A DNA stretch of 64,000 nucleotides from Minisyncoccia bacterium (GTDB taxonomy: Bacteria; Patescibacteriota; Minisyncoccia; Phycocordibacterales; Phycocordibacteraceae), in the NCBI GenBank assembly GCA_038212075.1, contig JBBQUV010000003.1:20036-84035 (forward strand), written 5' to 3'. The position numbers were made by a program, and so were the translations under genes. Positions 1,425 through 29,040 of the stretch are shown here, piece after piece; the first letter of the stretch is position 1; the number at the start of each line of letters is the position of its first letter. The notes below the pieces were generated by a model. It was not told the DNA's origin. It ran no database searches and saw only the letters and a list, made by a program, of their open reading frames with translations.

Positions 1425-1785
1425 GTGGAGAGAATCACAGGTTCGTTGACAATCGAATACGCATAGGTAAATCAAAGCTCCGATGTAACAGTCGGAGTGT
1501 AGAAAGTGCAAATTCATCTAGCGATGTTAGAAAGTTAATTGTGGTGTTCAGATCTCCGCACAGGAGACGTGAAGGGTGTATGGTGGATGCCTAGGCTTGT
1601 GACAGCGATGAAGGACGCTACTAATCAGCGATAGCTCCGGGGAGGCGATTTGTAGCCTTTGATCCGGAGGTCTCCGAATGGGGAAACCCGTCTGCGTATG
1701 CGGACATCTTCCGAGTAATGTCGGAAGGAGCGAACCTCGGGAAGTGAAACATCTCAGTACCGAGAGGAAAAGAAAACAAGAGCGA

Positions 1786-1840
1786 GCCGTGTTCTGTCTG
1801 CGCATTATGTTTGTGCAGATAGAACACGTCTCTCGCGATT
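1786..1840 (+). other. About 45-nt hairpin expansion segment in 23S domain I relative to E. coli
   Basis: Extra cgtgttctgtctgcgca...tgcagatagaacacg hairpin between GAAAAGAAA and GATTCCCC. Confidence 0.5.
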
Positions 1841-2103
1841 CCCCTAATAGCGGCGAGCGAAAAGGGAAAAGCCCAAACCTCTGCTTTCGGGCAGGGGGGT
1901 TGTAAGGCAGGAGCGCACAATTTATTGTGAAAGAGTTACCAATTGTCTTTATAGTGGAAGCTGCTGGGAAGCAGCGCCCCAGAGGGTAATGGCCCCGTAC
2001 ACGAAATAAATGACAACTCTTGCTCCTGTTCTTGAGTAGCTCGAGACACGAATAGCTCGAGTGAATCTGCCGGAACTAACCGGTAAGGCTAAATATGTCA
2101 CAG

Positions 2104-2143
<40 letters not shown>

Positions 2144-3595
2144 CACCCCGAGAGGGGAGTGAAATAGTACTGAAACCATACACTTACAAAGGGTGGGAGC
2201 GGGTCGAGAGCAATCTTGGCACCGTGACCGCGTGCCTATTGAAGAATGAGCCGGCGAGTGTGTATATGTTGCGTAGCTAAATCCTTTGACGGATGCAGCT
2301 GTAGGGAAACCGAGTGTGAATAGCGCGTAAGTAGCATATATACGACACGAAGCCAGATGAGCTTGCCATGAGCAGGGTGAAGTTTCTCGAAAGAGGAATG
2401 GAGGCCCGAACCCGTAGGCTGTGCAACACCTTGGGATGACTTGTGGCAAGGAGTGAAAAGCTAATCGAATCTGGTAATAGCTTGTTCTCTCCGAAACAGC
2501 TTTTGGGTTGGCGTCGCGTGTTCCCTCTGGGGGTAGAGCACTGGAAGGGTTCAACAGGGAGAAATCTCGTGAACCCTATCAACCTCCGAATACCAGAGAT
2601 CAAGAGCGCGGCAGTTAGAACGTGGGGGCGAAGCTCCACGGATCGAAAGGGGAAGAGCCCTGATCGCCAGTTAAGGCCCCTAAATCGACGCTCAGTATAT
2701 CCACAAGGAAGTGGGAATCCTTTGACAATGAGGATGTTGGCTTAGAAGCAGCCACCATTTAAAGAAAGCGTAACAGCTCACTCATCGAGGGTTCCTGCGC
2801 CGAAGATGATCGGGATTAAGCGTCGTGCCGAAACTGCGGGTGTACATCTTTTTCGAAAGATGTACGCGGTAGGAGAGCGTTCCATTCGCGCTGAAGCTAA
2901 AGGGGTGACCCATAGTGGAGCGTATGGAAGTGAGGATGCCGGTACAAGTAACCACAATGCGGGTGAGAACCCCGCACATCAAAAGACCAAGGATTCCTCG
3001 GCCATGGTAATCATCCGAGGGTTAGTCGGGCCTAAGAGGATGGCGAAAGCCGCACTCGATGGACACAAGGTTAATATTCCTTGACCGCTACACATGCGAA
3101 GAAGTGACGGACTGCTGTAATTATTGCCCATTATTGGATTTGGGTTGGTGCCGTGAGGAGGTGTACTAGGAAAATCCGGTACGCACTACTCCAAGCGGAG
3201 CCGCAATTTCCTCCTACGGGGGGAGAAAGAATAGTGAGCGCGGTTCCAAGAAAACCTTCTACGCTTCAGTGTGCTAGCGCCCGTACCGTAAACCGACACA
3301 GGTGGTCAAGTCGAGTAGACTACGATGAACGAGTTAGAGGTCCTCAAGGAACTCGGCAAAAAAGCGGCCGTAAGTTAGCGATAAGGCCTGGCTCTCGCAA
3401 GAGAGCCCGCAGTGAATGTGTCCCTGCCAACTGTTTACCAAAAACACAGCTCCCTGCGAACTCGTAAGAGGATGTATAGGGGGTGACGCCTGACCAATGC
3501 CGGAAGGTCAACCACGGGTGGTACCCTACTTCGGTAGTGTGCTGGACTGTGTAAGCCCCGGTGAATGTCGGCGATAACTATAATCGTCCTAAGGT

Positions 3596-3801
3596 CCTGC
3601 GTGTGAGCAATCGCACGCAGGACGGATTGGGACGATTATAGGAGACCGTAAACAGTGTTGAGAAACGTGCGTCATTTAAAGCTACCTCGTTATACGGTAA
3701 CGTATAACAGATCCGCGGCTCACAAGAGAGGCCATACGCCGCGCGTCCTCGCTGTAAAAAGATGAGGATGAAGAAATGGTCCTACGTTAAAGGAATAGTA
3801 G
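3596..3801 (+). mobile_element. 206-nt insertion at the 23S site equivalent to E. coli 1917 (CCUAAGGU^AGCGAAAUUCC). Possible small or degenerate group I intron
   Basis: Exon sequence is contiguous if 3596-3801 is removed. The 5' exon ends in T and the insert ends in G. Too short for a canonical group I core, and R/S elements are not clear. Confidence 0.45.
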
Positions 3802-4130
3802 AGCGCAATTCCTTGTCGGGTAAATTCCGACGTGCACGAATGGCGTAATGAGTGGGGAACTGTCTCGAGGACTCGCTCGGTGAAAATGCATTTCCGGTGA
3901 AGATGCCGGATACCTGTAGTTAGACGAAAAGACCCCAGGAGCTTTACTGCAGCTTCGTATTGGGGCTGCGTGCTTTATGCGTAGCATAGTGGGGAGAGGT
4001 TGAGATATCGGTTTCGGCTGATGTGGACTCGAAATATGAAATACCCATCTTAAAGTGTGCAGTTTCTAACCGATCGGACGAACCCGATCGGGACCGTGCG
4101 TGGCAGGCAGTTTTGGTGGGGCGCTATCCT

Positions 4131-4653
4131 TCGGCCAATGAATACTGGATTCGTTGGTCGAAGCCATGGCGCCCCGCGAAGCCTCAATAAGCTTCAAAAC
4201 AAATAAATAAGGGGGCGCGGCAGCAATGCTGCGGGCAAGTTGGGAATATGCTGGAAACACCGGTGGATGGTATGCTACTTGTATTAGCAAGTGACAATGT
4301 ATACCTGCGGTCAATCAGCAGGGAAGTTAATTAAACATGGAACAAATACCACAGGAGCCCAAAAAAGAAGGTAAAGAAGAACTTATGCACAGCCTCGATA
4401 TCTCTCTAGAGCTTATTGAGGACCATATGTCGGGAGCTCGAATGTGCGCAGCCAGTACTTCTAGCGAAGTTGCAAGCCATGAGGAAGAGTATATGGACAA
4501 GGCTTGGAAAGAAATTCGAGAGGCCAGAAAACTTCTTGAACAACTAAAAGACGGTTCCTAATGAATTAACCCCCTCAGAGACTACAAACCAACCATCCTG
4601 AAAAGGATGAATGTATAGTCCGCACTGCATGGCGACATGCAGATAACACAAGG
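4131..4653 (+). mobile_element. Group I intron in 23S rRNA, next to the P-loop (about E. coli 2262), 523 nt, containing a small ORF
   Basis: Exons align across GGGGCGCTATCCT | CCTAAAAAGTAACGGAGGAG. R-like tcagagactaca and S-like gaatgtatagtcc elements (P7) present. P/Q-like gctgcgggcaag / cctgcggtcaatcagcag. 5' exon ends in U and intron ends in G. Confidence 0.75.
4337..4561 (+). CDS. Intron-internal ORF (74 aa, acidic, no recognisable homing-endonuclease motif)
   Basis: ORF lies in a peripheral loop of the group I intron, between the Q and R elements. No LAGLIDADG/GIY-YIG/HNH motifs. Confidence 0.25.
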   Translation: MEQIPQEPKKEGKEELMHSLDISLELIEDHMSGARMCAASTSSEVASHEEEYMDKAWKEIREARKLLEQLKDGS

Positions 4654-4987
4654 CCTAAAAAGTAACGGAGGAGTCTATTAAGGTTCTCTAGTCGCGAATG
4701 GAAACCGTGACGATAGTGTAATGGCATAAGAGAGCTTAACTGCGAGGCGTACATGCCAAGCAGATGCGAAAGCAGAGCATAGTGAACCGATGGTCCGCCT
4801 TAGATGCGGCCAGAGATTAACGGATATAAGTTACCCTGGGGATAACAGGCTAGTTCCGCCCAAGCGTCCTTAGCGACGGCGGAGTTCGGCACCTCGATGT
4901 CGGCTCAACATAGCGCGGGGCTGGAGAAGGTCCCAAGCGTTTGGCTGTTCGCCAATTAAAATGTTACGTGAGCTGGGTTCAGACCGT

Positions 4988-5351
4988 TCAGTTGCTGAAA
5001 AGTATCGGCACTTGGACCGTCTGAACCCCTTCGAAGAAGTTATCAAGTCAAAAAGGTTTTTTCGTCTAAGCAAAAGAATAGAACCAACAAATATCACGGC
5101 GGTCTTGCATAGGAATATGCAAGAATCAAATCAACTGATATCGGTGAAATCCTGTAAAGGACAACACCGAGGGAAGAGGGCTTTAGCGACTCGCCAAACC
5201 AGAGAAGAAAGGTTTGGCTCGCTTGCATAAGTGTTCGCAAATCTTGCCTGAAGGCAAAATTTGCTCCCTTACCCGTAGAGACTGAACGTTGAACAGCGAG
5301 AACCGCTGAAGTTACAGTCCGATCCCCGCAGTAATGTGGGAAAACATGGTG
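4988..5351 (+). mobile_element. Group I intron in 23S rRNA at the site equivalent to E. coli about 2593 (AGAACGU^CGUGAGACAG), 364 nt
   Basis: Exons align across GGGTTCAGACCGT | CGTGAGACAGGTTGGTC. R-like gtagagactgaa and S-like agttacagtcc. 5' exon ends in U and intron ends in G. Confidence 0.7.
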
Positions 5352-5772
5352 CGTGAGACAGGTTGGTCTCCTATCTACTACAGGCGTTGATTATTGAGGA
5401 GGGTCGTCCCTAGTACGAGAGGACCGGGATGAACTGACCTCTGGTCTACCAGTTGTCCTGCCAAGGGCATTGCTGGGTAGCTATGTCGGGTTCCGATAAC
5501 CGCTGAAAGCATATAAGCGGGAAACGGGCTCCAAGATCAGTAATCGTTATGAGACACCTTGCAGATTACAAGGTTGATAGGCTTTAAGTGAAAGTGCCGT
5601 AAGGTATTGAGCTGAGAAGTACTAATATGTCCAGTTCTCTTGTGCGGAACTCTGGGTGCCACAAAGCGCTATGAGTTTGCACTTGCTACGATTTTGAATT
5701 ACTTATGCGTATTCGGTTGTTAACGATACCAAGACATTGGTCCGTTGGAATCGAATTGTTTATTGAAAGTTT

Positions 5773-5887
5773 AGTTCTGGTGGTTTGGCGGCGGGGTCAT
5801 ACCCGTTCTCATTCCGAACACGGCAGTCAAGCCCGCTAGCGTCGATGGTACTTCTAACGAGGGAGAGTAGATAGCCGCCAGAACTAA
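5773..5887 (+). rRNA. rrf: 5S rRNA
   Basis: ...CCGAACACGGCAGTCAAGCCCGCTAGCGTCGATGGTA...GAGAGTAG... with helix I pairing agttctgg / ccagaact. Confidence 0.85.
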
Positions 5888-5899
5888 GTTTTCAACACA

Positions 5900-5925
5900 A
5901 AAACCGCGCAAGCGGTTTTTGCTTT
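5900..5925 (+). terminator. Rho-independent terminator after 5S (accgc-gcaa-gcggt + TTTTT)
   Basis: GC stem-loop followed by a T tract. Confidence 0.7.
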
Positions 5926-6000: not shown

Positions 6001-6756
6001 ATGTGGGCATCACGCAGACAATTCATTATTGTTTCCATTGTGGTGGGGGTAATTGTTGCCGTCGTTGCCGTAACACTCGTGTCTGTTTTCTATAAGGCGC
6101 CGTCGTGCACCGACACCAAACAGAATCAGGGCGAAACAGGTGTTGACTGTGGCGGCCCGTGCTCGCACTTGTGTACTGTTGCGGTAGCGCCACCATCCGT
6201 GCGTTTCGTGCGACAGCTCACACCCATACAGGGGCGCACCGACGTGATTGCCTATATTGATAACACCAATACAAGTGCGGCCATGAAGGGTGCTCGGTTT
6301 ACGGTAACGTTGTACGGGTCGGATAATATTGTGCTCGCGAAGAAAACTGAAACGATTGATTTGCCGCCGAAATCAACCGTGCCGGTGTTTATTCCCAATT
6401 TCTATACCGGCTTTCAAACAGCGGCGCGTGCGTTTCTGGTTTTCGATGAAACATCTTTTAATTGGTACCGCTACACCGATGACCGTCCAGTGCTTTCTTC
6501 TAAAAACGCCGTGCTTTCACAGGGCGACGCCCCAAGACTTTCTGCAAATATATACAATCCAACAGCGTACACGCTGTACCGCGTGCCGGTAATAGCAACC
6601 GTGTTTGATAGTCAAAATAATGCCATTGCCGCTTCGGCAACACTTTTGCTTACTATCCCCCCTATGGGAACCGCACCTGCGATATTCACATGGAATAGTC
6701 CGTTTCCAACATCTGCCGCCAAAGAAGATGTGGTCCCGCTTGTGCCGCTTCCATGA
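6001..6756 (+). CDS. Hypothetical membrane-anchored/secreted protein (N-terminal TM, Cys cluster CTDTK...CGGPCSHLC)
   Basis: ATG at 6001 preferred over the upstream GTG of the ORF track. Hydrophobic N-terminus. Confidence 0.55.
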   Translation: MWASRRQFIIVSIVVGVIVAVVAVTLVSVFYKAPSCTDTKQNQGETGVDCGGPCSHLCTVAVAPPSVRFVRQLTPIQGRTDVIAYIDNTNTSAAMKGARFTVTLYGSDNIVLAKKTETIDLPPKSTVPVFIPNFYTGFQTAARAFLVFDETSFNWYRYTDDRPVLSSKNAVLSQGDAPRLSANIYNPTAYTLYRVPVIATVFDSQNNAIAASATLLLTIPPMGTAPAIFTWNSPFPTSAAKEDVVPLVPLP

Positions 6757-18183: not shown

Positions 18184-18200
18184 TTTTGTTCCGCCTATTC
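18184..18200 (+). promoter_or_regulatory. 5' strand of the 17-bp pre-16S processing stem
   Basis: ttttgttccgcctattc is the perfect complement of 19807-19823. Confidence 0.6.
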
Positions 18201-18206
18201 TTAATT

Positions 18207-19651
<1,445 letters not shown>

Positions 19652-19806
19652 TATCCGAATGGAATCGGTTCTCCCGAAAGGAGGACCAAGTCGAACGTGT
19701 CGCAAGACACGAGGGAGATAGCACTACGTCCCCAAACGTGTGCTCGGTAGCCCCATACGTCAGGGGCGCTGGAGTCGGAGCGCTCAATTGACGCTCTGAA
19801 TACGGC
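19652..19806 (+). other. 155-nt 3' trailer/extension of the 16S transcript enclosed by the processing stem
   Basis: Lies between GGATCA and the 3' stem strand. Contains AGGAGG but no CCTCC. Confidence 0.5.
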
Positions 19807-20395: not shown

Positions 20396-20617
20396 ACTAT
20401 GTCGCCGCGACTTGCTCAAGAGCAAGTCGCTTCACGGCGCGTCGCCAGATGCGCAATTTGTTTTTATGACGTCGATATTTTTCCTCAGGAGTGGAAACCC
20501 TCAATACTGCGGAGGATTTTGGTTCACGTGGCCGAGAGCCGCGGTAGACCATTTGTATCTGTAGTATAGCAAGAGAAAGTGGAAATGAAGACGGGTTTCT
20601 GTTAGTATCGTCCTATT

Positions 20618-20639
20618 GCGTGCGTAGCTCAGTTGGCCT
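20618..20639 (+). pseudogene. 5' fragment of a tRNA-like gene (acceptor 5' strand GCGTGCG, TA, D-stem GCTC, D-loop start)
   Basis: Pairs perfectly (7/7) with the CGCACGC acceptor 3' strand at 20805-20811. Confidence 0.45.
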
Positions 20640-20651
20640 GAAGCTACTGCC

Positions 20652-20670
20652 GTGTGTTGTGTGTTGTGTG
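20652..20670 (+). repeat. Short (GTGTT/GTG)n simple repeat spacer
   Basis: gtgtgttgtgtgttgtgtg. Confidence 0.6.
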
Positions 20671-20742
20671 CACGCTTAGCTCAGCTGGTAGAGCACTCGA
20701 CTGATACTCGAGCGGTCCTAGGTTCGACTCCTAGAGCGTGCA
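20670..20742 (+). tRNA. tRNA-Ile (anticodon GAT), 73 nt, no encoded CCA
   Basis: Hand-folded cloverleaf: acceptor gcacgct/agcgtgc, D arm gctc-agctggta-gagc, anticodon arm ctcga-ctGATac-tcgag, T arm ctagg-ttcgact-cctag. Confidence 0.85.
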
Positions 20743-20765
20743 CACAACATGGAACAGTAGCTTCG

Positions 20766-20812
20766 CTCCACTGATACTCGAGCGGTCGTAGGTTCGACTC
20801 CTACCGCACGCA
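20766..20812 (+). pseudogene. 3' half of a second tRNA-like gene (anticodon arm with GAT, variable loop, T arm, acceptor 3' strand + discriminator A)
   Basis: ctcca-ctgatac-tcgag-cggtc-gtagg-ttcgact-cctac-cgcacgc-a. 20770-20804 is near-identical to 20700-20734 of the intact tRNA-Ile. Confidence 0.45.
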
Positions 20813-20885
20813 CTAGAGAGAGGCCGCCTAAAGGCGGTTTTCTCATTTATACCCATACGTATCCTATCCAGACTGTTTTGCGAGC

Positions 20886-27210: not shown

Positions 27211-29040
27211 ATGGATAACCCCGAGCGGGTAACGTACTTTGCGGCGACCGATGCGCGTGGTAAGCGTATACCGTTTGGTATTAAGCAGAAGGATCGCTCG
27301 CGTCATATGTATGTGATTGGGAAGACTGGTATGGGTAAATCAACCCTGCTTGAAAACATGGCGATTCAAGATATCAGAAATGGAGAAGGTATTGCATTTA
27401 TTGATCCGCACGGTGGCACCGCCGACAAGCTGTTGGAATACATTCCAGAACATCGCGTAAAAGACGTGGTGCACTTTGCGCCATTTGATATGGATAACCC
27501 TATCGCGTTTAACGTGATGGAGGATGTGGGCTACGACAAGCGTCACCTTGTGGTGTCGGGACTTATGGCGACGTTTAAGAAGATTTGGATTGATGCGTGG
27601 TCGGCGCGTATGGAATACATTTTGACGAACACACTTCTCGCCCTTCTTGAATACCCGGGCGCAACGCTCCTTGGCGTGAACCGAATGTATACGGACAAAA
27701 ACTATCGCAAGGTGGTTGTAGAAAATATTAAAGACCCTGTGGTGAAAGACTTTTGGACAAAAGAATTTGCCACGTACACCGATCGTTATACCCAAGAAGC
27801 GACGCCCGCCATTCAAAACAAAATCGGGCAATTCACTGGTAACCCACTCATTCGCAACATAATTGGGCAACCGAAGTCGTCCTTTGATATTCGTAAAATG
27901 ATGGACGAGAAGAAGATTCTCATCATAAACCTTTCAAAGGGAAGAGTGGGCGACACCAACACCCAACTCTTGGGCTCAATGCTCACCACGCGCATTTTTC
28001 TTGCCGCCATGAGTCGTGCTGATTTGTCTGCGGCGCAGATAAATCAACACCCAAACTTCTACTTTTACGTAGACGAATTTCAAAACTTTGCGAACGAAAC
28101 GTTTGCAGAAATTTTGTCTGAAGCGCGAAAATATAAACTGAATCTCATCATTGCACACCAATACATTGAGCAAATGGAAGAAGAAGTGCGTGATGCTGTG
28201 TTCGGAAACGTAGGCACCACCGTGTGTTTTCGTGTGGGACCGTTTGATGCTGAAGTGCTTGAAACAGTCTTTATGCCCGAATTTACGAAAGAAGATTTAG
28301 CAAACCTTGGGCTACGACAGATTTACCTTTCTCTGATGATTGACGGCGTTGGTTCGCGGCCGTTTTCTGCGGTTACGATTCCGCCGATTGAACCACCACC
28401 GCAGATATTTAAAGATCAAGTTGTTACTTTTTCACGCTCACAGTTCGGTACAGAGCGCCAAGGCATTGAAGACGCTATTGCCGCAGAGCTTGCGCCACCA
28501 GCAGGCGCACCACCGGCGGAAGAACCAAAACCAAAGAAACCAAGCTACGGTACTCGTCCTCGTGCGGAAGTATCTGAACCTCCGCGGCCACGTCCGCGAC
28601 CAAGCCTTCCTATTGCACCGGCTGAAATGTCGCTTCCCGCACATGCATCGCCTTCGCAACAGCCACGTCCACCGCGTGTGCAGGAAGTGCGTCCTGCGCC
28701 CGTCGCCCAAGGAAAGAGTGCAGAAGATTTGCGCGCCATTTTGAGAAAGATGACCGAGAAGACAAGTAAGGAGCGCGAATCAAAAAGTGCTGAACGGCAA
28801 GGTGCACTTAAAGAAACCGTTGCCACGGTTGTACAAAAACCGGCTCCAGTGCAGTCTGTGCCGCAAAAACAATCCACTCCACTCCCAGTGCCACCCCCTC
28901 CTGTACAACCACCACAACCCCAGAACCAACCACCAGCTCCATCTGCACCCGCGCCAACTCAGCCCATGCCAGTAAAAGCACGTCCTGCATTTGAAGTGGC
29001 CGAAGAAGATCTTAAAAAGATTTTCAAAGAGGGACTTTGA
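27211..29040 (+). CDS. TraG/VirD4/TraD-like type IV coupling-protein-family P-loop ATPase with proline-rich low-complexity C-terminal tail
   Basis: Walker A YVIGKTGMGKST, IDPHGG, Walker B region FYFYVDEFQNF, ...IIAHQY. C-terminal 200 aa rich in P/Q/A (PRPRPRP, PPPPVQPPQPQNQPPAPSAPAPTQP). Confidence 0.55.
   Translation: MDNPERVTYFAATDARGKRIPFGIKQKDRSRHMYVIGKTGMGKSTLLENMAIQDIRNGEGIAFIDPHGGTADKLLEYIPEHRVKDVVHFAPFDMDNPIAFNVMEDVGYDKRHLVVSGLMATFKKIWIDAWSARMEYILTNTLLALLEYPGATLLGVNRMYTDKNYRKVVVENIKDPVVKDFWTKEFATYTDRYTQEATPAIQNKIGQFTGNPLIRNIIGQPKSSFDIRKMMDEKKILIINLSKGRVGDTNTQLLGSMLTTRIFLAAMSRADLSAAQINQHPNFYFYVDEFQNFANETFAEILSEARKYKLNLIIAHQYIEQMEEEVRDAVFGNVGTTVCFRVGPFDAEVLETVFMPEFTKEDLANLGLRQIYLSLMIDGVGSRPFSAVTIPPIEPPPQIFKDQVVTFSRSQFGTERQGIEDAIAAELAPPAGAPPAEEPKPKKPSYGTRPRAEVSEPPRPRPRPSLPIAPAEMSLPAHASPSQQPRPPRVQEVRPAPVAQGKSAEDLRAILRKMTEKTSKERESKSAERQGALKETVATVVQKPAPVQSVPQKQSTPLPVPPPPVQPPQPQNQPPAPSAPAPTQPMPVKARPAFEVAEEDLKKIFKEGL

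Follow-up and report, generated by a model that had tools for sequence, protein, structure and literature searches.

A complete tRNA-Ile gene nested within the two parts of another tRNA-Ile gene in a Patescibacteria genome

Tyrosine-integrase islands and prophages target transfer RNA (tRNA) genes and restore them, and small palindromic mobile repeats, among them the REP/REPIN sequences, the Rickettsia palindromic elements and the mitochondrial GC clusters, are tolerated inside genes. Here we describe a locus that shares features with both, found in a stretch of 64,000 nucleotides (nt) from a Minisyncoccia bacterium of the Patescibacteriota (GenBank assembly GCA_038212075.1, contig JBBQUV010000003.1, positions 20,036 to 84,035 of the forward strand; hereafter the window, numbered from its first nucleotide). 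In it, an intact tRNA-Ile(GAU) gene (the inner copy), flanked by two mutually complementary arms with which it forms a cassette, lies between the 5' and 3' parts of a second tRNA-Ile gene (the outer copy). We consider it probable that the resident tRNA-Ile(GAU) gene was broken at the DNA level by a palindrome-armed cassette with a working tRNA-Ile(GAU), and that the outer halves are a decaying pseudogene. Judged by its sequence, the locus is one of a recurrent Patescibacteria class in which an intact, armed tRNA sits inside a tRNA gene of the same identity.

With tRNA-restoring integrative elements, the locus shares the tRNA gene as target, an insert whose tRNA sequence keeps the function, and a displaced copy that is present as a direct repeat. 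In contrast to these elements, the cassette is only ~126-129 nt long, of which 73 nt are tRNA, is free of genes, carries a whole tRNA and not just a 3' end, is bounded by inverted-repeat arms, leaves both 5' and 3' remnants of its target (nested, not in tandem), and has no integrase nearby. With the palindromic repeats, it shares the short length, the ability to form a hairpin, recurrent end motifs, including inside genes, and the lack of a clear target-site duplication. To our knowledge, none of the REP/REPIN, Rickettsia palindromic element and GC cluster families carries a complete tRNA in the tip of its hairpin, and none sits specifically in the gene for that same tRNA; nor was a RAYT or TnpA-like gene seen here.

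In appearance, the locus recalls the disrupted tRNAs of archaea and algae, where a splicing endonuclease and a ligase act on the RNA to mend tRNAs that are split, permuted or interrupted by bulge-helix-bulge introns at non-canonical sites, with the exons under selection (PMC3218864). There, too, separated halves are joined by flanking complementarity, and the D arm is among the insertion points. In our case, by contrast, the host is bacterial, there is no bulge-helix-bulge, the outer copy is short of seven nucleotides, and most outer copies of the class, among the matches listed in the metagenome scan described below, are decaying. Within the same phylum, Nakagawa et al. (2026) reported group I introns in Patescibacteria tRNA genes, without mention of nested tRNAs (PMC13011429); those genes are likewise interrupted and missed or misread by standard annotation tools. 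Such introns are self-splicing ribozymes in the anticodon loop, e.g., at 35/36 (PMC13011429), whereas the insert in the window is an armed tRNA in the D arm with no group I core. The defining features of each known system fail in at least one respect at this locus, and the nested tRNA can be said to resemble tRNA-restoring elements in its logic, palindromic repeats in its form, and archaeal disrupted tRNAs in its looks.

Anatomy of the nested locus

The features of the locus, all on the plus strand, are, in order:

20578-20612, plus: promoter-like region of the resident tRNA-Ile, AGTGGAAA ... TTTCTGTTAGTATC
20603-20608, plus: -10-like hexamer TAGTAT, ending 9 nt before the first nucleotide (+1) of the outer copy and 61 nt before that of the inner one
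20618-20636, plus: outer tRNA-Ile 5' fragment (tRNA positions 1-19), with acceptor strand GCGTGCG, TA, D-stem strand GCTC and D loop AGTTGG
20637-20669, plus: cassette 5' arm, with CCT, distal strand GAAGCTACTG (20640-20649), internal loop and proximal strand TGTTGTGT (20662-20669)
20670-20742, plus: inner, intact tRNA-Ile(GAU), 73 nt including the discriminator A, CCA not encoded (ARAGORN, Rfam)
20743-20765, plus: cassette 3' arm, with proximal strand ACACAACA (20742-20749), internal loop, distal strand CAGTAGCTTC (20755-20764) and G
20766-20812, plus: outer tRNA-Ile 3' part (positions 27-73), in direct repeat with part of the inner copy, with anticodon arm CTCCA-CTGATAC-TCGAG (C.C mismatch), variable loop CGGTC, T arm GTAGG-TTCGACT-CCTAC, acceptor 3' strand CGCACGC and discriminator A
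20820-20841, plus: terminator-like hairpin, GAGGCCGCC TAAA GGCGGTTTT, closing the transcription unit

An earlier note on this DNA, made from the letters alone, had recognised a canonical tRNA-Ile(GAT) at 20670-20742. ARAGORN calls a tRNA-Ile(gat) at exactly these coordinates, and the gene scores 71.4 bits against Rfam RF00005 (E = 1e-13 to 1e-15; gathering threshold 29). By strict stem count, its stems are all perfect (acceptor 7/7, D 4/4, anticodon 5/5, T 5/5; anticodon loop CTGATAC), and it is identical to the commonest tRNA-Ile allele of the clade at 72 of 73 positions. ARAGORN also returns a second 'tRNA-Ile' at 20736-20813, overlapping the end of the real inner gene; this spurious call is an artefact, since the inner 3' acceptor strand (GCGTGC, near-identical to the outer 5' strand) is used in it as a 5' strand. 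Phantom tRNA genes of this kind may appear in pipeline annotations of nested loci.

The outer copy is less complete than the earlier note had it. Its 5' fragment is real and covers positions 1-19, ending at 20636 and not at 20639, while the 3' half, with a GAT anticodon arm, T arm and acceptor strand plus A, reads as had been described, and the two acceptor strands (GCGTGCG with CGCACGC at 20805-20811) do pair 7/7. Besides this stem, the strict count gives 5/5 for the T stem and 4/5 for the anticodon stem, which holds the C.C mismatch. Positions 20-26, the 3' strand of the D stem, are absent: after the best join, the D stem has no true 3' strand and reaches 3/4 only when bases are borrowed from the arms. 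Rfam finds on the outer 3' half a partial tRNA match only (20750-20804, model positions 8-63), at 17.9 bits and thus below the gathering threshold of 29. A lenient ARAGORN test accepts the joined outer copy of the window, whereas the strict count does not; we therefore judged restorability by explicit stem count, and by this measure no single excision of the insert restores a cloverleaf at the window locus.

This bears directly on whether the insert could be an intervening sequence resolved in RNA, with the inner tRNA freed by RNase P and RNase Z and the outer halves either ligated or used as a two-piece tRNA, so that one transcript would yield two tRNA-Ile species. In favour of this, the two outer halves would be held close by the arms, and neither the acceptor stem nor the T stem of the outer copy has a mismatch. 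Still, an outer copy without positions 20-26, with a mismatched anticodon stem and with only a partial, 17.9-bit match is not restorable, and the missing D-stem strand appears to exclude this route at the window locus. Excision at the 10-base-pair (bp) distal helix, one of the options in the earlier note, is not supported, for the same reasons. That helix moreover pairs intron with intron (20640-49 with 20755-64), the junctions, read directly, show no bulge-helix-bulge motif, and Rfam shows no group I core. For the locus and its class taken together, we hold resolution in RNA to be very unlikely, on grounds completed below.

Two intron types were considered by name and rejected. For a group I intron, Rfam yields no Intron_gpI hit, whether at the gathering threshold or at E <= 1, and the junctions lie in the D arm; for a bulge-helix-bulge intron or a split or permuted tRNA, no such motif can be drawn from the sequence as read, and the exons are without positions 20-26.

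The 3' part of the tRNA is directly repeated over 48 nt at 88% identity (20696-20743 and 20766-20813), which confirms the near-exact repeat reported earlier for 20700-20734 and 20770-20804 and corrects its extent, and the 5' part over 20 nt at 80% identity. A 33-nt pattern from the anticodon to the T arm occurs twice, against 0.00 occurrences expected, and TAGCTCAGYTGG twice, against 0.24; the 196-nt unit has a folding energy of -89.3 kcal/mol (z = -4.6), which none of 200 shuffled sequences equalled. Pattern counts so far above expectation, together with the fold energy, exclude a chance origin of the nested layout. The inner and outer copies share their anticodon, variable and T loops and differ at four base pairs on both sides (3-70, A-T/G-C; 4-69, C-G/T-A; 7-66, T-A/G-C; 49-65, C-G/G-C). 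With four fully compensated pairs between them, they are two distinct tRNA-Ile alleles and not a fresh duplicate.

A direct repeat of a tRNA 3' part that starts at the anticodon stem, the classic integrase crossover region, could also be the scar of an integrase element that once sat in the tRNA-Ile gene, duplicated its 3' part and was later almost wholly deleted, an att-like origin that the earlier note had offered as well; one relative (L064) has a simple duplication of the 3' 23 nt ~140 nt downstream. Such a scar leaves unexplained both the upstream 5' fragment that matches the downstream acceptor strand and the inverted-repeat arms, and the start of one repeat is just 70 nt from that of the other. 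Pfam annotation of the 13 neighbouring proteins, over ~7 kilobases (kb), found a conserved neighbourhood of housekeeping genes plus a TraG-like ATPase only, with no gene for an integrase, phage protein or transposase, and an intact integrative element between the repeats is absent from all 85 MurD-linked relatives examined. An integration scar is hardly probable on this evidence.

Together, the arms of the cassette make up a 24-nt inverted repeat of 79% complementarity, which qualifies as a terminal inverted repeat. The distal helix of 10 perfect base pairs seen earlier is confirmed, with its 3' strand at 20755-20764, one nucleotide upstream of where it had been placed. The 5' arm contains a (GTGTGTT)2 repeat; what had passed for a (GTGTT)n spacer does not merely separate, as 20662-20669 pairs with 20742-20749, and this proximal helix (TGTTGTGT with ACACAACA, the latter sharing A73 with the inner tRNA) lengthens the inner acceptor stem. 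The arm duplex reaches -29.5 kcal/mol in the window, against a median of -10.3 kcal/mol for tRNA-Ile loci. In the minimum-energy fold of the whole unit, the outer acceptor stem and the long helix are present, as is the inner cloverleaf for the most part, its D stem not being formed. A conserved alternative fold, in which the 5' acceptor strands of the two copies would pair with each other, was discarded as confined to the window, where it arises because GCACGC and GCGTGC are near-palindromic. The 64-kb window holds no second copy of an arm beyond chance, and an inverted-repeat scan of it found no repeated palindromic family.

As to which copy is the resident one, the promoter-like motif (..GTGGAA..TTTTTGnTAsTATC..) is also present upstream of tRNA-Ile in relatives, and among 73 tRNA-Ile loci that neighbour murD, a TAsKAT hexamer occurs in 45 of the 60 single-copy ones, at a median of 11 nt upstream of the tRNA +1; a generic sigma-70 scan did not flag this conserved region. 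Intact tRNA-Ile genes with the outer-type GCGTGCG/CGCACGC acceptor stem are found in three relatives (L206, with 68% MurD identity, L012 and L056). The spacing of the hexamer, the intact outer-type genes and the fact that the inner copy matches the commonest allele identify the outer copy as the old resident gene and the inner cassette as the newcomer, in agreement with the first option of the earlier note, a tRNA gene interrupted in its D arm by a tRNA-bearing segment.

Nested tRNAs in relatives and across the phylum

For comparison, we gathered 80 species-representative genomes via MurD and six loci by exact-protein look-up. A tRNA-Ile(GAT) lies upstream of murD in ~65 of these genomes, as do, where checked, PrcB and 16S. 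The same junctions (after G19 and before position 27) with homologous arms recur in five of them (L041, L043, L037, L038 and L007). In a sixth (L073), the nested tRNA lies in the anticodon loop, and a tRNA-free CCTGCC...GGCAGG hairpin in the outer D loop, while L017 has the inner gene, its trailer and a 3' half only. In L041, the allele that is the inner one elsewhere is the outer one. The proximal 3' arm (C..AAAACAGAA-like) is homologous to the tRNA-Ile 3' flank in L041, L017, L043, L037, L038 and L010, and proximal-arm sequences occur also at loci beyond the five nested relatives.

A second layout, with an arm-flanked tRNA directly behind the promoter followed by a copy without its 5' acceptor strand, is found in L011, L056, L069, L072, L079 and L205, and as a third copy in L041. 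In L079 and L205, the arm-flanked tRNA is followed, as read, by a D-arm fragment only; in the five others, the second copy carries an insert of ~75-95 nt in its D loop, after GTTGGT:

L011, 1962-2052: D-loop insert
L069, 3610-3686: D-loop insert
L072, 2072-2150: D-loop insert
L056, 1300-1370: D-loop insert
L041, 1645-1737: D-loop insert

This insert is conserved among L011, L069 and L072 (AAGCCCTTCGGGCTT ... CACTTTATTTCACCTCACTCCTcGCtG), those of L056 and L041 being alike only at the start, and a similar insert splits the T stem in L043.

A leader-trailer duplex of -21 kcal/mol or lower is found in 12 of 73 tRNA-Ile loci, and 11 of these 12 (all but L065) carry extra tRNA-Ile fragments. In an RNAalifold consensus of six nested loci, the inner cloverleaf, a 13-bp proximal arm helix and a junction helix CTGAN/NTCAG are kept, with two-sided changes at 14 of 44 predicted pairs over the arm helices and the inner cloverleaf together. 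On a rough, quick neighbour-joining tree of MurD, the nested loci are scattered; the nearest neighbours of the window are not nested, and neither is any of the close MurD relatives L202-L206 nested in the way of the window. Filled and empty forms within the same species were not found, as look-ups with window proteins gave nothing or a 1.5-kb contig that stops short of the tRNA.

This recurrence disposes of the case for an assembly artefact, i.e., a chimeric join of two strain alleles of tRNA-Ile. The source is probably metagenome-assembled, and two alleles of one tRNA are what such a join would bring together; yet the arms are unique sequence present in neither allele, the architecture recurs in the products of different assemblers and studies (L007, L037, L038, L041, L043 and L073), and one and the same nested locus was recovered from two different samples (L090 and L150). 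The possibility raised in the earlier note, that related genomes would reveal an artefact, is accordingly not borne out by these independent assemblies, and we give it almost no credence.

In seven relatives (L001, 1560-1900; L206, 1-60; L014, L030, L047, L058 and L066), 16S and murD are on one strand and tRNA-Ile with its promoter is on the other. Close to its tRNA gene, L001 also carries the tRNA 3' end once more and a T-arm fragment in inverted orientation. These arrangements suggest inversions at the tRNA-Ile locus.

A local rearrangement that involves no mobile cassette, in which an earlier tandem or partial duplication was reshaped by template switching at quasi-palindromes or by inversion, has more to recommend it. 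The distal 3' arm (CAGTAGCTTCG) resembles tRNA positions 7-15 (GTAGCTCAG), with the distal 5' arm as its reverse complement, and the outer positions 1-19 form, with a C and CTGAAGCTAC, a snap-back palindrome (20624-20649). The native trailer of L010 and other single-copy relatives is similar to the proximal 3' arm, the pared-down arrangement of L017 and the opposite-strand genes with inverted debris in L001 and L206 would fit in, and arms and fragments of the same type are nearly always found together. On the other side, two alleles set apart by four compensated pairs do not stem from one recent local event, homologous arms are present in MurD lineages that do not cluster while the nearest relatives of the window are not nested, and in other tRNA families conserved arm-end motifs are common to different genes and to tRNA-free sites, which local copying would not lead one to expect. 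On balance, we regard this explanation as unlikely.

Beyond tRNA-Ile, we scanned metagenomes for an intact D arm located 20-50 nt downstream of a tRNA 5' fragment, which returned at least 120 loci, and counted as candidates those with an outer acceptor stem of at least 6/7 beside a T-loop motif; as the pattern requires an intact-looking 5' fragment, frequencies from this set are biased. Among the matches listed, there are at least 41 nested candidates, ~25 of them with an outer acceptor stem of 7/7. They include Thr(GGT), Thr(CGT), Val(GAC, TAC, CAC), Met, Lys(TTT, CTT), Pro and Ile tRNAs, and at every candidate the identity is the same inside and outside, at insertion points that vary (19/20, 23/24, 31/32, 35-38, ~41). 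The strict stem count finds an intact inner copy at all 41 candidates, and an outer one that is intact and precisely interrupted at ~9-11 of the 41 (e.g., L085, L164, L174, L189 and L196). In the others, the anticodon is gone, additional GC-rich hairpins have been acquired or deletions have occurred, the profile of pseudogenes of different ages. The one metagenome locus checked for taxonomy (L085) belongs to a Kuenenbacteria-like member of the Patescibacteria, so that nested tRNAs are present in at least two classes of the phylum. A full-text literature search, in which few subscription journals were covered, returned no account of a bacterial tRNA nested in a tRNA, the one related paper being that on group I introns (PMC13011429); as far as we could find, a nested layout recurring for many Patescibacteria tRNAs has apparently not been described before.

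Some of these loci are more elaborate. Nesting at two levels, with different arms at each level and a single intact tRNA, is seen for a Thr-GGT (L129, 3975-4330) and a Lys-TTT (L147, 9345-9660), and on the reverse strand of L119 nesting affects both of the neighbouring Thr-GGT and Thr-TGT (145-480 and 905-1090), with CCCCGCCAC/GTGGCGGGG arms in either case. GC-rich hairpins crowd the outer remains.

At the level of the class, resolution in RNA gains from the precisely interrupted, restorable outer copies of L085, L164, L174, L189 and L196, from a T.G wobble that the CCTGCCCGCC/GGCAGGCGGG helix keeps at a fixed position in each locus read, from the intron-richness of Patescibacteria (PMC13011429), and from a phage contig in which a perfect tRNA-Lys is interrupted, precisely between its nucleotides 36 and 37, by a tRNA-Asn. 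It loses from the damage to about three quarters of the outer copies among the matches listed, many with a hairpin in place of the anticodon, from insertion sites that include stems as well as the anticodon loop, and from the presence of the same arm motifs between protein-coding genes.

The phage case merits its own description. In a tRNA array (IMGVR_UViG_3300013947_000465, L208, 6110-6258), a tRNA-Asn(GTT) of 76 nt including CCA (6146-6221) lies inside a tRNA-Lys(TTT), with no arms and no extra bases, and its removal restores a perfect cloverleaf. Here, one tRNA would play the part of an intron in a different tRNA. Cuts by RNase P and RNase Z would be expected to leave ligatable ends in the Lys anticodon loop. 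The phage case suggests that some nested tRNAs may be resolved at the RNA level.

Genomic neighbourhood

On its 3' side, the tRNA locus is followed by the terminator-like hairpin, a gene with a PrcB_C domain, murD, a gene for an aminotransferase and murC. By name, each of the best MurD homologues belongs to Patescibacteria, Paceibacteria or Minisyncoccia, the closest non-self one being 72% identical, and the genome is Paceibacteria-like. A few genes 3' of murC, at 27211-29040, lies a gene for a TraG/VirD4-like coupling ATPase (TrwB_AAD_bind, T4SS-DNA_transf), found at the same position in the relatives L001 and L205 and on the P0002 contig. Divergent from the tRNA promoter, on the minus strand at 20397-20552, is an open reading frame of 51 residues, basic in composition (..STPEEKYRRHKNKLRIWRRAVKRLALEQ..), which has no Pfam match; DNA resembling this region is present upstream of tRNA-Ile in L001, L203 and L204.

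The ribosomal RNAs of the window are bacterial, with 23S at 1560-5645, 5S at 5776-5883 and 16S at 18200-19659. The 23S-5S pair is thus 12 kb upstream of 16S, so that the rRNA genes are unlinked and in an unusual order. The 23S match spans 4086 nt against a model of 2925 nt, which implies ~1.1 kb of inserted sequence, in which no group I intron was called. The 5S rRNA is flanked by a 28-nt inverted repeat of 79% complementarity (5756-5783 and 5875-5902), which looks like a leader-trailer processing stem, much as the arms of the inner tRNA seem to.

Arm motifs and the origin of nested tRNAs

Across the nested loci, the ends of the arms recur. We found CCTGCCCGCC...GGCAGGCGGG, also in reverse complement, CCCGTTAGA...TCTAACGGG and CCCCGCCAC...GTGGCGGGG, and these motifs are not bound to one tRNA gene or one insertion site. 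In other genomes, the CCTGCC and CCCGTTAGA motifs recur at further sites, and (CCTGCC)n/(GGCAGG)n palindromes stand between genes, with no tRNA in them. A target-site duplication of fixed length was not seen at the junctions; the window has a 7-nt deletion instead, and the other nested junctions are mostly precise or show small deletions, L095 alone having a short flanking direct repeat.

A tRNA-free element bounded by CCCGTTAGAG...CTCTAACGGG, with 54-92 nt in between and, in L020 and L072, two internal hairpins, was encountered at three places:

L020, 4030-4095: tRNA-free element between the murD stop and the murC start
L072, 3185-3250: tRNA-free element at the murD start codon
L130, 1813-1916: tRNA-free element that separates the ribosome-binding site of a gene, dnaJ-like by its first residues, from the ATG

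When folded, such an element would rejoin the ribosome-binding site and the start codon.

The sequences themselves show the nested architecture and its recurrence, the outer copy in the resident position, decay of outer copies, and arm motifs that are shared and also occur without a tRNA. We infer both the insertion at the DNA level and the route by which the tRNA would be processed, and above all the manner in which like would find like. In the mechanism we propose, insertion of the cassette would have replaced positions 20-26 of the resident gene, and the inner gene would now supply the tRNA-Ile(GAU) of the cell. Transcription of the whole unit would start at the resident promoter (hexamer at 20603-20608) and end at the terminator (20820-20841); the arms, with ~24 nt each, would fold into a helix with an internal loop that prolongs the inner acceptor stem, like the leader-trailer stem of the 5S rRNA; and the enzymes that normally process tRNA 5' and 3' ends would release the inner tRNA, which would be given its CCA, the outer pieces being discarded. 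Most economically, the class as a whole would have arisen from small palindromic elements that insert preferentially into tRNA genes. Where tRNA genes are single-copy, an insertion would survive only if a spare of the broken gene came along with it, and a cassette once in place could be lost only by precise excision.

The match between cargo and target may have come about by three routes: 1) palindromes prefer tRNA genes, only insertions of the same identity survive, and these can then no longer be lost; 2) the cassette spreads by recombination, with the conserved tRNA halves as homology arms; or 3) a homologous tRNA allele serves to repair a break at a palindrome that was already there.

Several observations weigh against a DNA-level insertion of a mobile, armed cassette. 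Within the 64-kb window, no enzyme, target-site duplication or further copy ties the cassette to known transposition. The tRNA-Ile family has arm ends (CTGA.../...TCAG) unlike the CCTGCC and CCCGTTAGA motifs. Among the genomes selected by MurD and without regard to nesting, armed tRNAs stand almost always beside fragments of the same tRNA, and free cassettes are rare (L065, perhaps L060). Thr(GGT) and Thr(CGT) genes share both the arms and the site at which these sit, yet in each the cargo matches the gene, which is awkward for a simple model of cargo carried from elsewhere; this and the rarity of free cassettes favour a targeted or in-situ route over random insertion followed by survival. About a quarter of the outer copies among the matches listed, finally, are perfect and precisely interrupted, and may reflect recent insertion or function.

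A more far-reaching idea, which we entertain only tentatively, is that the armed cassette is a selfish element of Patescibacteria, of a kind not described before, that targets the gene of its cargo's identity, or homes into it by recombination, a further strike on the new working copy producing the Russian-doll loci. Such an element would be harmless as it supplies a working spare, and hard to lose, since only its precise excision would be viable. It would represent a third way of living inside an essential, conserved gene, beside RNA splicing by introns and protein splicing by inteins.

For Patescibacteria, with their tiny genomes and single-copy tRNA genes, insertion into a tRNA gene should be lethal, and an insert that brings its own spare would be a way round this. 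If general, the arrangement raises the question of how an element finds the gene that matches its cargo, and points to a family of small palindromes, of which we found no description in the literature searched, that is tolerated in RNA genes and between ribosome-binding site and start codon. It would also explain odd or duplicate tRNA calls in Patescibacteria annotations, and would offer a route by which tRNA alleles may be replaced across species boundaries.

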